Source: Escherichia coli O157 typing phage 13. Taken from it: a stretch of DNA of 64,000 bases. The stretch lies in the sequence record KP869111; one strand, written 5' to 3'. Position 1 is the stretch's first letter. Each line of letters starts with the position of its first letter. Shown here piece after piece: positions 2,881-63,716 of this stretch. The translations under genes and the position numbers were made by a program. Under the pieces are notes generated by a model. The model was not told the origin of the DNA. It saw only the letters and a list, made by a program, of their open reading frames with translations, and made no database searches.

Positions 2881-3566
<686 letters not shown>

Positions 3567-3570
3567 TTTA

Positions 3571-4305
3571 TTACCTTAAGATTGTTTCAATTTTAGAATA
3601 AAGCTCTTCTAAAGAGCCGTCGTTTGTAATAACTAAATCGCCTTCTTCAATAGGCAACCCAGCTTCTGTAATATGTTTATCAGTGGATTCCGTACCAGAG
3701 CGAACCACATGAATAACTGTAGCACCCATCGCTCTAGCGGTTTCCATTTCATGGACTTGGCGTGTATCGGTTACAACATAGTAATCGAAATCACTTCCAA
3801 TATAATCCATATAGTTTAATGCAAAAAGTTTAACCCAATACATACGGTCAAATAAATTAACGACAACATCCGTACCGAGGGCTTGCATAAGACGGCGGAT
3901 TGACCATGTGTCGTTGATATTATTTATAGCTTCACGCAGGGCTTCATACGGTTTAATATCTAGATATGAATACCCACCTTCTAAGGATGATAATACTTTA
4001 ACATTATTAATTGGTAAATATTGACTTTGTAAATAAATTAGCGCTTCTTCCAATAATTCAATAACATCCAACTTATTGAGATTTAATGGTGTTTCACGGT
4101 CATATCCGACACCTTCAAAGTATTCGTATTTCAACTCTGTGAATACATTAGGGTTTTCGGCATGTTTACGTCCCCAGGCTATTGCTAGAGCGTCTTTAAT
4201 CGGATATGCCAATTGGTATTTTACGGATTTAAAGTTTGAATTGATGTAATCAGCAGTGGTGTCTTTACCACTACGTTTGACGCCACTTAAAAAGATTAGC
4301 TCCAT
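3571..4305 (-). CDS. 1: gp1 deoxynucleoside monophosphate kinase
   Basis: 244 aa; P-loop GVKRSGKDT; T4 gene order. Confidence 0.9.
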   Translation of the reverse strand: MELIFLSGVKRSGKDTTADYINSNFKSVKYQLAYPIKDALAIAWGRKHAENPNVFTELKYEYFEGVGYDRETPLNLNKLDVIELLEEALIYLQSQYLPINNVKVLSSLEGGYSYLDIKPYEALREAINNINDTWSIRRLMQALGTDVVVNLFDRMYWVKLFALNYMDYIGSDFDYYVVTDTRQVHEMETARAMGATVIHVVRSGTESTDKHITEAGLPIEEGDLVITNDGSLEELYSKIETILR

Positions 4306-59293: not shown

Positions 59294-59626
59294 TCACTTA
59301 TAAAGACACGGAATAGCTTTATAGTGGCATGTTACGAATTTCTGTTTAATTTCTTTAGGTTGTTTAAGTCCCAAAGCCACAAATGGATGTGGAACATTTC
59401 GAATTTGTCCAACTGGTAGTGGAGTCAAATCACCGACTTCAACAAAACCTTCAGGAACATCAGGACCTACAGAATGAACTACACATAGTTCAGGAACTTC
59501 ACCTTGAACACGTTTACCGATCACAAGTCCTGATTCGGTAACTTCTTCATCACCTGCTTGAGCGGGTTCAGAAACCAGAATGACATATTCACCAACAGCA
59601 CGAATTGGGAGTTGTACTTCAGACAT
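59294..59626 (-). CDS. 31: gp31 co-chaperonin (GroES-like)
   Basis: 110 aa; matches T4 gp31 from memory. Confidence 0.9.
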
Positions 59627-59655
59627 CTTATTTCCTTGTTGTTTGACGATAGATT

Positions 59656-59682
59656 AATAATACCATACTATTCGTAAAGCAT
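59656..59682 (-). promoter_or_regulatory. candidate middle promoter for gene 31: MotA box TATGCTTTA - 12 nt - TATTAT
   Basis: MotA-box consensus with proper spacing to -10. Confidence 0.5.
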
Positions 59683-59683
59683 A

Positions 59684-59992
59684 TTACATAAGAAGCAAAC
59701 GTTCTACCGGAGTACCATCAACCGAAATTACTTTATCAAGGCGGAAAGAACGCCACTGGCCTAACTTGGTATCGAATGCTCGAACTGATTCACGAGGTTC
59801 AGAACGAACTTCTGTTGCCGGATTGTTATTTTCATATTTGACTTCAAGTTCATCACGCGAAGCAAACATAGTGCGTACCTCGCCGTTAGCCTTTTCAAAT
59901 ACAACACAATGAACGCCTACAGACAGAATAGTTTTAATACGTTCACGAAGAACCATAGTTTCTTGTTCAGTTAAAATCATATTATTCACCAC
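59684..59992 (-). CDS. hypothetical protein (31.1 position)
   Basis: 102-aa ORF overlapping cd stop region. Confidence 0.6.
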   Translation of the reverse strand: MVNNMILTEQETMVLRERIKTILSVGVHCVVFEKANGEVRTMFASRDELEVKYENNNPATEVRSEPRESVRAFDTKLGQWRSFRLDKVISVDGTPVERLLLM

Positions 59993-60563
59993 AAAAGTTT
60001 CGGATTTGTTCCCAATTCAGAGAACGAAGATTATTACGAGAGTACTGAATTACTTCAATACCGGCTTGTTTTAGAATGTCTGCCCAATTTTCAGGAGATC
60101 TGTCATATAATTCTGCGTATACAACCTTTTTAATACCTGACTGTGTAATAGCTTTAGTGCAATCAGGACATGGAGAAAGTGTCGTATACAACGTAGCACC
60201 TTCAATAGAATTACCTTTACGAGCTGCAAACAAAATTGCATTCAGTTCCGCATGGATTTCGTTATTAGCGGACCATGCACTATGAGCAGCCCGATGTTCT
60301 TTAGCCAAAACAAAATTATCCACCCGTCCAAATGCTGTAGTGCCTTCTTTATGCCCAGCAACGATGACCGGGCTTGGTTTATTCTTCAACCAACCGTTTT
60401 CGGATGCATGTTCACAACAGTTAACACCACCGGCCGGGCTACCGTTATACCCAGTAGAGATAATGCGTCCATCTTTTTCAATGACGGCACCAACTTTCCA
60501 TGAACAACATTTTGATTCTTGAGAAATCAAATAAGCAATTTGAAGATATGTGCTAGCTTTCAT
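59982..60563 (-). CDS. cd: dCMP deaminase
   Basis: 193 aa; zinc-binding motifs HAELNAI and PCPDC. Confidence 0.95.
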   Translation of the reverse strand: MKASTYLQIAYLISQESKCCSWKVGAVIEKDGRIISTGYNGSPAGGVNCCEHASENGWLKNKPSPVIVAGHKEGTTAFGRVDNFVLAKEHRAAHSAWSANNEIHAELNAILFAARKGNSIEGATLYTTLSPCPDCTKAITQSGIKKVVYAELYDRSPENWADILKQAGIEVIQYSRNNLRSLNWEQIRNFCGE

Positions 60564-61555
60564 TATTGAACCTTATTAATATAAGTTAACAGCTCTTTAG
60601 TTTGTTCCCAACTGATGCACGCATCGGTAACGGAAACGCCATAGGACATATTATCAGAAATTTTTTGATTTCCTTCATGTAGGAATGATTCTATCATAAT
60701 TCCTTTGACCAAATCATTAGCTGCTAAATTTTTACCAATACCAATTTGATTGCTATAATGCCCATCAGCGTTTGCATGGCTACAGTCAACCATTACATAA
60801 TGATTCAGACCTACTGCCCTTGCTTTGTTAGAAGCTTCTTGAATATCAGAAGAATGATAGTTCGGGCCGTTGGTCCCGCCACGCAATACGATATGCGTAT
60901 TCTGATTACCTTCAGCTTCAACAATGCCTACAGTACCATCGACGTCCATACCCATATACCGATGAGGCCAGGCGGCACTATACATCGCGTCTGTAGCTAC
61001 TTTAATAGAACCATTGGTTGCGTTCTTGAAGCCTACGCACATCGGTAGACCTGAAGCAATTTCACGATGTGTCTGACTTTCAGTCGTACGGGCGCCAATA
61101 GCAACCCATGAGAAAATACCAGAAAGATACTTAATCGTGAATGGGTCTAATACTTCAGTTGCTAATGGAAGTCCCATACGTAGAAGTTTACGACACAATG
61201 TTCGTGCAACTATAAGACCGTGGTTCATATCAAAACTTCCGTCAAGATATGGATCATTTACAAGACCTTTCCAACCTACGGTAGTTCGAGGCTTTTCAAA
61301 ATAAACGCGCATCACTAACAGAACATTAGGAAGACGAGTTTGAAGTTCAGCCAGACGTTTGCCGTATTCAACAGCAGCAATAGGGTCATGAATTGAACAA
61401 GGACCTACAACAATAAGTTTGCGTGGGTCTTCACCGTTCATAATCGAATTAACTTGTTCGCGATGAGAAGCCACTTGTGATGCGTAAGCTTCCGACAAAG
61501 GAATAATCTCAGCCAGTTCTTTTGGAGAAATAAGTTTTCCGACGACAGGTAACAT
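60563..61555 (-). CDS. 3-deoxy-D-arabino-heptulosonate 7-phosphate (DAHP) synthase, class I (AroG-like)
   Basis: 330 aa; collinear with E. coli AroG from memory; KPRTTVGWKGL motif and metal ligands C (GPCSIHDP), H (DCSHAN), E (ESFLHEGNQ), D (SVTDACI); stop overlaps cd start. Confidence 0.9.
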   Translation of the reverse strand: MLPVVGKLISPKELAEIIPLSEAYASQVASHREQVNSIMNGEDPRKLIVVGPCSIHDPIAAVEYGKRLAELQTRLPNVLLVMRVYFEKPRTTVGWKGLVNDPYLDGSFDMNHGLIVARTLCRKLLRMGLPLATEVLDPFTIKYLSGIFSWVAIGARTTESQTHREIASGLPMCVGFKNATNGSIKVATDAMYSAAWPHRYMGMDVDGTVGIVEAEGNQNTHIVLRGGTNGPNYHSSDIQEASNKARAVGLNHYVMVDCSHANADGHYSNQIGIGKNLAANDLVKGIMIESFLHEGNQKISDNMSYGVSVTDACISWEQTKELLTYINKVQ

Positions 61556-61658
61556 AACAATCCTTAGGAGATATAAACAGATTCTGATTCAACAATACCT
61601 TTAACCGGATTAGACAGGCTAAGTTGGTAGTGCTCAGATTTATGACCATTCTCGATAG

Positions 61659-61678
61659 TAATGAGATAGCTCTCATTA
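61659..61678 (-). promoter_or_regulatory. hairpin AAUGAGA-GCUA-UCUCAUU overlapping the stop codon of the upstream ORF, in the leader of the DAHP synthase gene
   Basis: 7-bp perfect stem; no U-tract. Confidence 0.4.
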
Positions 61679-61912
61679 TAGTGTTCCATATACTCGAGTT
61701 GCTTCAACAAGACCATCACTGCCTAATTTAAGATTAGTAATTTGGTCACCATCTTTAGGATTAACGATTATGAGAAAAGAACGTGGAGATTCTTGAATAA
61801 CTCGTAATGTTGCATCTTGGAAACGTTCAGACACTTTATTGATGAGTGCTTGAGCAAATTCTTTTACTTTAATCTGAAATTCGTGTACTGTAATTGGGTT
61901 TTCACTTAGCAT
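61676..61912 (-). CDS. hypothetical protein (78 aa)
   Basis: Own early promoter and GAGGAA RBS. Confidence 0.6.
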   Translation of the reverse strand: MLSENPITVHEFQIKVKEFAQALINKVSERFQDATLRVIQESPRSFLIIVNPKDGDQITNLKLGSDGLVEATRVYGTL

Positions 61913-61940: not shown

Positions 61941-61970
61941 ATAGTATCACAACTCCACCATGTTGTAAAC
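61941..61970 (-). promoter_or_regulatory. T4-type early promoter (GTTTAC - 18 nt - TGTGATACTAT)
   Basis: Consensus-like elements upstream of ATG at 61912. Confidence 0.6.
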
Positions 61971-61972
61971 CA

Positions 61973-62248
61973 TTAAATTGCTTTGCATTCAATTTTTTGT
62001 GTACCGAAATTGATATCACACTGGATAACTAAATCGCCGTCAAGATCAAATACCACTATGACGTGTGCAGACCCAGGGAGAAGAGTAATAGCAATAGAAT
62101 CTACTTGGTCTGGGAGCAAAGCATTGAGTACATGAGTTAGTTGAGCATGAACTCTGAGTTCGGCTGCATTATCAAGCACTTCAAACATATTATTAGCAAT
62201 AATCTGACTGAAGACTACCTTTACAATTTCAGAATAAGTTGGGAACAT
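61973..62248 (-). CDS. hypothetical protein (91 aa)
   Basis: ORF in cd-pseT interval. Confidence 0.6.
   Translation of the reverse strand: MFPTYSEIVKVVFSQIIANNMFEVLDNAAELRVHAQLTHVLNALLPDQVDSIAITLLPGSAHVIVVFDLDGDLVIQCDINFGTQKIECKAI

Positions 62249-62651: not shown

Positions 62652-62652
<1 letters not shown>
62461..62652 (-). CDS. hypothetical protein (63 aa)
   Basis: ORF overlapping pseT stop by 1 nt. Confidence 0.55.

Positions 62653-63716
<1,064 letters not shown>

Follow-up and report, generated by a model that had tools for sequence, protein, structure and literature searches.

The subject of this analysis is a metabolic gene of Escherichia coli O157 typing phage 13 (KP869111), of which a stretch of 64,000 nt, hereafter the window, served as the start sequence; coordinates are window positions unless otherwise stated. 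On the minus strand, immediately ahead of cd, the gene for dCMP deaminase, lies an open reading frame (ORF) of 330 codons whose product is a DAHP synthase (DAHP, the 7-phosphate of 3-deoxy-D-arabino-heptulosonate) of type I-alpha, most similar to AroF. The two genes and their junction are the following.

60563..61555, minus strand: coding sequence of the DAHP synthase (3-deoxy-7-phosphoheptulonate synthase), type I-alpha, AroF-like, 330 aa, ATG start; from the ORF and family profiles
59982..60563, minus strand: cd, dCMP deaminase, directly downstream; Pfam dCMP_cyt_deam_1, E = 1.6e-26, and annotated as cd in relatives
60561..60565, minus strand: TAATG junction, in which the DAHP synthase stop TAA (60565..60563) and the cd start ATG (60563..60561) share one base; from the sequence

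As to the identity of the gene, the ORF matches the Pfam family DAHP_synth_1 (PF00793; E = 5e-75, 252 bits against a cut-off of 25.5), the NCBIfam aroFGH equivalog TIGR00034 (428 bits, cut-off 173) and PRK12755 (455 bits, cut-off 343), and it matches the PHROG 5045 profile end to end (E = 3e-182, residues 1-330 against 8-337 of 341). The top match among sequences of solved structures is E. coli AroF (6agm, E = 5e-105), with phage residues 8-327 aligned to AroF residues 17-344. The first-pass annotation, made from the letters of the sequence, had described the ORF as collinear with class I DAHP synthases, with the KPRTTVGWKGL motif and four metal ligands intact, and as overlapping the cd start by a single nucleotide, and both statements are borne out, the former by alignment and by the Pfam, NCBIfam and PDB matches, the latter by the TAATG at 60565..60561; the sequence and profile searches that it had proposed as a check likewise returned DAHP synthases (DAH7PS) as top matches. 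Its designation of the enzyme as AroG-type has to be replaced. By alignment, identity to the AroF, AroG and AroH of strain MG1655 is 51, 47, and 43%, respectively, and neither the AroG-specific NCBIfam model NF006723 (363 bits vs. a cut-off of 568) nor the AroH-specific subfamily model NF009396 (386 bits vs. 463) is reached. An activity as a synthase of 3-deoxy-D-manno-octulosonate 8-phosphate (KDO8P) was also considered and rejected: the KPRT motif distinguishes DAHP synthases from KDO8P synthase, which has a substrate motif of its own, the KPRTTVGWKG of the phage protein is identical to that of AroF, AroG and AroH, and its top structure and sequence matches are all DAH7PS.

With E. coli AroF (PDB 6AGL/6AGM) the phage enzyme shares the four metal ligands, the residues for phosphoenolpyruvate (PEP) and erythrose 4-phosphate (E4P), the KPRT motif and a Gly at the position of AroG S211, where the Phe- and Trp-type enzymes have Ser. 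It differs from AroF in an N-terminus shorter by about 9 residues, in the region that holds AroF Ile11, in five residues (AroF P151 to Ile, Q152 to Lys, D156 to Gly, S181 to Pro, and F210 to Tyr), in a shorter C-terminus and two internal deletions (5 and 3 residues in the alignment with AroF, AroG and AroH), and in the GC content of its gene (41 vs. 52%).

The catalytic residues are intact. The ligands C53, H260, E289, and D311 align with AroG C61, H268, E302, and D326, and R83, K88, P89, R90, T91, G154, A155, R156, K177, and R225, at positions that we take from AroG structures to be those binding PEP and E4P, are all conserved in the alignment. For a wider comparison, known positions were tabulated in AroG numbering for 30 proteins of the phage clade and for 95 cellular homologues, the latter among the matches listed. 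C61, H268, E302, D326, R92, K97, P98, R99, T100, G163, A164, R165, K186, and R234 are identical in six phage sequences and in E. coli AroF, AroG and AroH, and the 24 further phage-clade proteins are also identical at the four metal ligands and at R92, K97, R99, R165, K186, and R234. The metal site is thus invariant in all 30 phage-clade sequences, and the tabulated catalytic positions are invariant in the cellular set too. An AlphaFold2 model built from a 47-sequence alignment (mean predicted local distance difference test score, pLDDT, 91.5; predicted template modelling score, pTM, 0.91) was matched by Foldseek to the DAH7PS of Neisseria meningitidis, Francisella tularensis, E. coli, and yeast at TM scores of 0.94-0.96 and root-mean-square deviations of 1.5-1.7 A, and in this model the phage protein has the (beta/alpha)8 barrel of the solved DAH7PS. 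The enzyme is accordingly predicted to be competent in condensing PEP and E4P to DAHP.

What sets the phage enzymes apart from their cellular counterparts is the site of feedback inhibition. All 329 shared alignment columns were scanned for those at least 93% conserved in the phage clade and at least 90% conserved in the cellular homologues, with differing residues. Exactly six columns passed this unbiased scan, corresponding, in AroG numbering, to the substitutions P150I, Q151K, D155G, S180P, F209Y, and T223A (I141, K142, G146, P171, Y200, and A214 of the phage protein). Five of the six (150, 151, 155, 180, and 209) are named residues of the allosteric site, and the remaining one, T223, stands two residues beyond V221, also a residue of that site. 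In the cellular set Q151 is found in 95 of 95 proteins and S180 in 94 of 95, and P150, D155, and F209 are found in most; in the phage clade Pro at 180 and Tyr at 209 are present in 30 of 30, and I150, K151, and G155 in 29 of 30 each, the exception at position 151 being Arg. Across the six phage genera, with overall protein identities of 58-77%, conservation of these clade-defining residues is 97-100%.

The published record on the cellular enzymes gives these positions their meaning. Q151/Q152 and S180/S181 make contact with bound Phe or Tyr through the main chain of the ligand, the salt bridge between D155 and K127 stabilizes the inhibitor site, the AroG variant P150L is completely feedback-resistant, and S180F, F209A/S, and V221A confer feedback resistance as well (PMC9529685). 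Tyr-insensitive AroF has been obtained through changes of Pro148 or Gln152, or through deletion of Ile11 (PMC5791370). The N-terminus, to which Ile11 belongs, is affected as well: 11 residues precede the conserved Pro in the window protein, and 18-20 in AroF, AroG and AroH; the respective numbers are 9-13 throughout the phage clade and at least 17 in the cellular homologues among the matches listed. The short N-terminus must be real, because no in-frame ATG, GTG or TTG occurs upstream of the DAHP synthase ORF before a stop is encountered. The first-pass annotation had noted this shortening but had put it at 10-20 residues, and about 8-9 is the figure that emerges.

By alignment, then, the clade-defining differences between phage and cellular enzymes all lie in or beside the inhibitor pocket, the N-terminal arm is also shortened, and the phage enzyme departs in both from the AroF/G/H type. 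Because the pocket residues are rewritten and the arm that helps to form the pocket is shortened, insensitivity to Tyr, Phe and Trp, a possibility raised at first reading from the N-terminus, is a plausible prediction supported in silico, for which the clade-wide pocket substitutions (29-30 of 30 sequences) are stronger ground than truncation alone.

A telling comparison is with the deregulated alleles constructed in the laboratory (AroG P150L, S180F, and D146N; AroF P148L, Q152I, and delta-Ile11). The phage substitutions fall on three of the same positions, AroG 150, 151, and 180, and the phage enzyme is devoid of the N-terminal segment, so that the solutions to deregulation used by metabolic engineers are recognizable in it. 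In contrast to the engineered changes, those in the phage arose in nature, occur together at six positions along with the truncation, and are fixed throughout a viral clade; the residues adopted (I, K, P, G, Y, and A) are unlike the laboratory ones, and their effect on inhibition is a prediction.

The signature is not a general property of virus-associated DAHP synthases. A scan of IMG/VR recovered 78 DAHP synthase loci, of which the T4-like ones carry the I/K/G/P/Y signature, whereas most others, including many on contigs of giant-virus metagenome-assembled genomes, retain the P/Q/D/S/F pocket and long N-termini. One example is the dozens of Nucleocytoviricota contigs of this kind (GVMAG loci, L034-L088), putatively viral, whose type I-alpha enzymes are 40-47% identical to the window protein; they share with the latter virus association and intact catalytic residues, but with a canonical pocket and long N-termini they fall outside the T4-like clade. 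A different case is Aeromonas phage HJ05 (OQ594355.1, 79 kb, not T4-like), in which a homologue of 387 aa (L009:3899-5062), annotated as hypothetical, is likewise of type I-alpha with catalytic residues intact; it differs in having A/H/P/P/V at AroG positions 150/151/155/180/209, possibly an independent remodelling of the pocket, as judged from its sequence.

The gene itself is not new. The 2.6-kb region around it is 100% identical to those of E. coli O157 typing phages 3 and 6 (Mosigvirus), and in typing phage 3 the gene is annotated as “aroF, phospho-2-dehydro-3-deoxyheptonate aldolase.” A full-length homologue is detected by tblastn in 212 phage records, most of them correctly named: 139 are at 95-100% identity (Mosigvirus), 47 are at 60-80%, from phages of Klebsiella, Enterobacter, Edwardsiella, Erwinia, and Serratia along with coliphage EcS1, and 26 are below 60%, Proteus phages among them. 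GenBank entries such as gp195 of Shf125875, PhAPEC2_205, ECTP3_00186 of typing phage 3, and that of Klebsiella phage KLB31 are the same gene, the window protein being 100% identical to many such entries; there is no difference in sequence, and the records supply a name only. The PHROG database files family 5045 under “moron, auxiliary metabolic gene and host takeover,” and a general hypothesis of a shikimate-related auxiliary metabolic gene has been proposed for the KLB31 homologue, without residue analysis or experiment (PMC11845039). The gene is thus already known and routinely annotated, and the allosteric-site signature is the added result. The first-pass annotation had allowed that its proposal would fall if the gene turned out to be routinely annotated and characterized; annotated it is, and a characterization was not found in the searchable literature. 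Naming in the records is uneven in the vicinity: in the GenBank record of typing phage 3 (KP869101.1) cd (59982-60563) is named “ribD riboflavin biosynthesis protein” and pseT, the polynucleotide kinase/phosphatase gene (62652-63551), appears as “zeta toxin,” two misannotations of automatic origin; in the RefSeq copy the product names are corrected and the gene symbol ribD is kept.

As to the age of the gene, a homologue is found upstream of cd, in the same slot, in Kanagawavirus Entb_45, Kagamiyamavirus EcS1, Winklervirus X20, Klebsiella phage EI, and Bragavirus PM2, with, in some lineages, a cd.1 homologue or homing endonuclease genes intervening between the DAHP synthase gene and cd. Identities to the window, in per cent, are as follows.

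Entb_45: DAHP synthase 77, cd 84, pseT 58, gp31 86
EcS1: DAHP synthase 68, cd 75, pseT 58, gp31 57
X20: DAHP synthase 68, cd 71, pseT 56, gp31 66
EI: DAHP synthase 66, cd 79, gp31 65
PM2: DAHP synthase 58, cd 65, pseT 45, gp31 44

The divergence of the DAHP synthase goes in broad step with that of cd, pseT and gp31, Entb_45 being the closest and PM2 the farthest. The GC content of the gene (0.33-0.44) matches that of each phage, while E. coli aroF, aroG and aroH are at 0.52-0.53. In a search of 5.8 billion proteins, matches above about 55% identity are phage or phage-like only, and cellular matches, from many phyla, begin at 52-55%. Neighbor-joining with 128 sequences groups the 30 from the phage clade as monophyletic in 100 of 100 bootstraps; enterobacterial AroF is the nearest neighbor of the clade in only 41 of 200, and enterobacterial aroF was not adopted as the donor with support this low. 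A recent capture from a host is rejected, given the best cellular identity of at most 55% (51% for E. coli AroF), the ameliorated GC content and the monophyly of the phage clade. These sequence comparisons make it an accessory gene of old standing in enterobacterial T4-like phages of at least six genera, inherited vertically together with its neighbors and subject to sporadic loss. The proposal that this is an acquired auxiliary metabolic gene agrees with its filing in PHROG 5045, but the notion of a notable new acquisition gives way to long residence. Within Mosigvirus the DNA identity of the DAHP synthase gene is 99.0-99.9%, that of cd is 93-96%, and segments of the locus range over 70-100%. 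A recent sweep of the gene cassette was considered and not adopted, as gp31, cd.2 and cd.4 are equally conserved; nor should the low diversity be read as a sweep, because neighboring segments vary and the locus is a mosaic. One such mosaic element is cd.3 (61973-62248, minus strand), with about 70% DNA identity to AV118 or ChristianSchoenbein, where its neighbors are at 94-100%, and 99.6% identity to Shf125875, an allele swap within the cluster of small genes.

The remaining features of the locus concern how the gene is inserted and how it might be expressed.

61556..61675, minus strand: spacer of 120 nt, part of the cassette; 100% identical in the six Mosigvirus compared
61564..61689/61716/61719, minus strand: small ORF in the spacer, 41-51 aa, of doubtful coding status; “hypothetical protein” in many records
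61667..61678, minus strand: upstream cassette junction TAATGAGAGCTA, the cd.2 stop plus a copy of the first cd bases; from sequence comparison
60554..60565, minus strand: downstream junction of the cassette, TAATGAAAGCTA, matching the upstream one as an 11/12 direct repeat; from sequence comparison
61676..61912, minus strand: cd.2 homologue (DUF7320), first gene of the presumed cd.2-DAHP synthase-cd unit; Pfam, and 65% identical to T4 Cd.2
61561..61565, minus strand: Shine-Dalgarno-like AAGGA, 5 nt upstream of the DAHP synthase ATG; read from the sequence
61941..61969, minus strand: promoter-like (G)TTTACA-N17-TACTAT with an upstream TG, in the gap between cd.3 and cd.2; consensus match only

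In T4 the gene order is pseT - cd.5 - cd.4 - cd.3 - [early promoter Pe133295] - cd.2 - cd.1 - cd, and in the window it is pseT - cd.4 - ORF227 - cd.3 - [promoter-like site] - cd.2 - 120-nt spacer - DAHP synthase - cd. The statement made at first reading, that the cd-pseT interval of T4 holds only small ORFs, is correct (cd.1 to cd.5), and the comparison of this interval across T4-like genomes that was suggested then places the gene in the pseT-cd slot of six genera and finds it absent from T4 and RB69. RB69, JK36 and others have the order cd.2 - cd, and EcS1 and X20 have cd.2 - DAHP synthase - cd.1 homologue (a candidate in X20) - cd. The ORF between the two genes in EcS1, ORF233 (L005:3483-3818), is a homologue of T4 Cd.1 (39% identity, E = 3e-13), a similarly sized ORF occupies this place in X20 (gp193, L006:3498-3839), and Mosigvirus have neither cd.1 nor any ORF between the DAHP synthase gene and cd.

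Eleven records are without the 1113-bp cassette: RB69, JK36, JK42, moha, several mar005P1, and ECO111 5-P; records named mar005P1 occur both with and without it. Where it is missing, the TAA of cd.2 directly overlaps the ATG of cd in the same TAATG junction that otherwise joins the DAHP synthase gene to cd. The flanking repeats have the consensus TAATGA(G/A)AGCTA, and the upstream copy resembles a duplicated cd start. Because an 11/12 direct repeat bounds the 1113-bp difference, recombination between the repeats could remove or introduce the cassette and leave the coupling of cd undisturbed. The ATG in the upstream repeat opens an ORF of 55 aa (61509..61676) that begins MRA..., cd beginning MKA.... 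The small ORF of the spacer is confined, by tblastn, to the 139 cassette-bearing records. Insertion and deletion recur in the slot between cd.2 and cd. Genes for homing endonucleases of the Seg and MobE types, some apparently fragmented, flank the DAHP synthase gene in Klebsiella phage EI (L007:981-1575, 3510-4048) and Proteus phage PM2 (L008:1106-1822), and may contribute to the turnover of the region in these two.

As to expression, the T4 early promoter Pe133295 is annotated in the gap between cd.3 and cd.2 that is equivalent to the one holding the promoter-like site of the window. No terminator-like site was recognized between cd.2, the DAHP synthase gene and cd, and no promoter was recognized inside the 120-nt spacer, the one MotA-box-like match lying within the coding sequence, in a context without a suitable -10 element. 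Nor does the spacer appear to hold an RNA leader or riboswitch, as it has no Rfam match and a fold z-score of -0.82. An early cd.2-DAHP synthase-cd transcript would be the simplest reading of these signals, and the early-operon setting proposed at first reading is in keeping with it, the promoter-like site standing where T4 has its early promoter. Two observations from elsewhere in the window may be added: an arrangement like that of a T4 middle promoter, with a MotA-box-like ATATGCTTTA, 12 nt and then TATTAT, is found at about 59645-59684 (minus strand), just upstream of gene 31 (59294..59626), and no tRNA genes were found in the window.

We consider it probable that the gene provides an active, early-expressed DAHP synthase, deregulated with respect to the aromatic amino acids, that would hold the first step of the shikimate pathway open. 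Transcription would start early, from a promoter upstream of cd.2, as part of a cd.2-DAHP synthase-cd message, and the enzyme would be translated from its own Shine-Dalgarno sequence. In the infected cell, where the host's own aro genes would no longer be derepressible and its DAHP synthases would be feedback-inhibited, the phage enzyme would keep carbon entering the first step, which is rate-limiting (PMC10729320). The extra flux would supply aromatic amino acids and other chorismate products, candidate uses being the aromatic amino acids themselves, folate via chorismate, or a pull on the pentose phosphates through E4P.

A number of points weigh against this proposal. Biochemical or genetic data, such as an assay or a deletion, were not found in the searchable literature for any phage DAHP synthase. 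The residues that replace those of the pocket are themselves nearly invariant across the six genera, a pattern explained by a constrained, and possibly re-tuned, pocket no less well than by simple loss of the pocket. The DAHP synthase gene is dispensable, because RB69 and other records lack it. The annotated region examined encodes no other enzyme of the shikimate pathway, and any benefit must therefore depend on the downstream enzymes of the host. The promoter is a consensus match only, and the number of such sites in the region is not above chance. Finally, pairs of Mosigvirus differ by 1-5 synonymous and 0-8 non-synonymous changes, with ratios from 0 to 2, and within-genus dN/dS is uninformative as to purifying selection because there are only 1-12 differences per pair.

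The alternatives to be considered differ in what they make of the pocket. An ordinary Tyr-sensitive, AroF-like enzyme might simply add dosage, with the clade substitutions neutral or structural, and it is true that AroF is the closest of the E. coli enzymes (51%), that the Gly of the Tyr-type enzymes is present at the position of AroG S211, and that D146 and P148 (AroF numbering), L179, and V221 are retained. However, the residues that hold the inhibitor backbone, Q151 in 95 of 95 and S180 in 94 of 95 cellular proteins, are Lys (Arg in one) and Pro in the 30 phage-clade sequences, the segment carrying AroF Ile11 is missing or shortened, and P150L or S180F alone confers feedback resistance (PMC9529685), and we regard this explanation as unlikely. 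We give about the same small credence to a pocket re-tuned to some other ligand, be it a nucleotide, a phage-specific metabolite, chorismate or prephenate, that would make the flux into the shikimate pathway, or the consumption of PEP and E4P, depend on the state of the infection. Six residues at or next to the pocket that stay 97-100% conserved among genera 58-77% identical do make the pattern of a constrained site, and the gene is kept beside cd, whose product, according to the T4 annotation, is allosteric and activated by hydroxymethyl-dCTP and dCTP; the conservation may, however, equally reflect structural needs of the 137-147 loop and of the beta6a/6b hairpin next to the dimer interface, and the position beside cd may simply be left over from a hyperplastic region, other ORFs or homing endonuclease genes intervening in EcS1, X20, EI, and PM2.

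The enzyme may also be active and deregulated, as in the favored proposal, with the benefit lying elsewhere than in aromatic amino acids, either in a draw-down of E4P toward pentose phosphates for nucleotides or in chorismate for p-aminobenzoate and folate, in support of dTMP and hydroxymethyl-dCMP synthesis. E4P is produced by transketolase and transaldolase, and T4-type phages rely heavily on the folate-dependent thymidylate synthase and dCMP hydroxymethylase; a neighborhood of nucleotide metabolism, with cd adjacent and pseT upstream, would suit such a role, an argument by inference only. No sequence feature separates this possibility from aromatic supply, RB69 makes DNA with hydroxymethylcytosine (hmC) without the gene, and we hold it to be improbable. 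A link to the arabinosyl-hmC modification of Mosigvirus DNA was examined separately and rejected, since RB69, presumably a phage in which that modification was described, lacks the gene. A decaying or hitch-hiking passenger without function for the phage, finally, is very improbable. The gene is dispensable in several Mosigvirus isolates and the within-genus dN/dS, from very small counts, is not clearly below 1, but the frame is intact in 212 records, no catalytic residue varies among six genera whose proteins are 58-77% identical, the GC content is fully ameliorated, divergence tracks that of neighboring essential genes, and few segments of the locus are as well conserved within Mosigvirus as this gene (99.0-99.9%, cd being at 93-96%).

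By itself, an accessory gene that already carries the right annotation, in a phage group that is well sampled, has little significance. What lends it interest is that a whole clade of T4-like phages has seemingly reached the engineers' solution, with changes at AroG positions 150, 151, and 180 and loss of the N-terminal arm, to uncoupling the enzyme from end-product control. If true, this would be a clean case of a virus overriding the allosteric rather than the transcriptional control of host metabolism, and strain engineering would gain a feedback-resistant DAHP synthase scaffold of natural origin, while the natural Mosigvirus isolates with and without the cassette would be ready material for measuring the value of an auxiliary metabolic gene to a coliphage.

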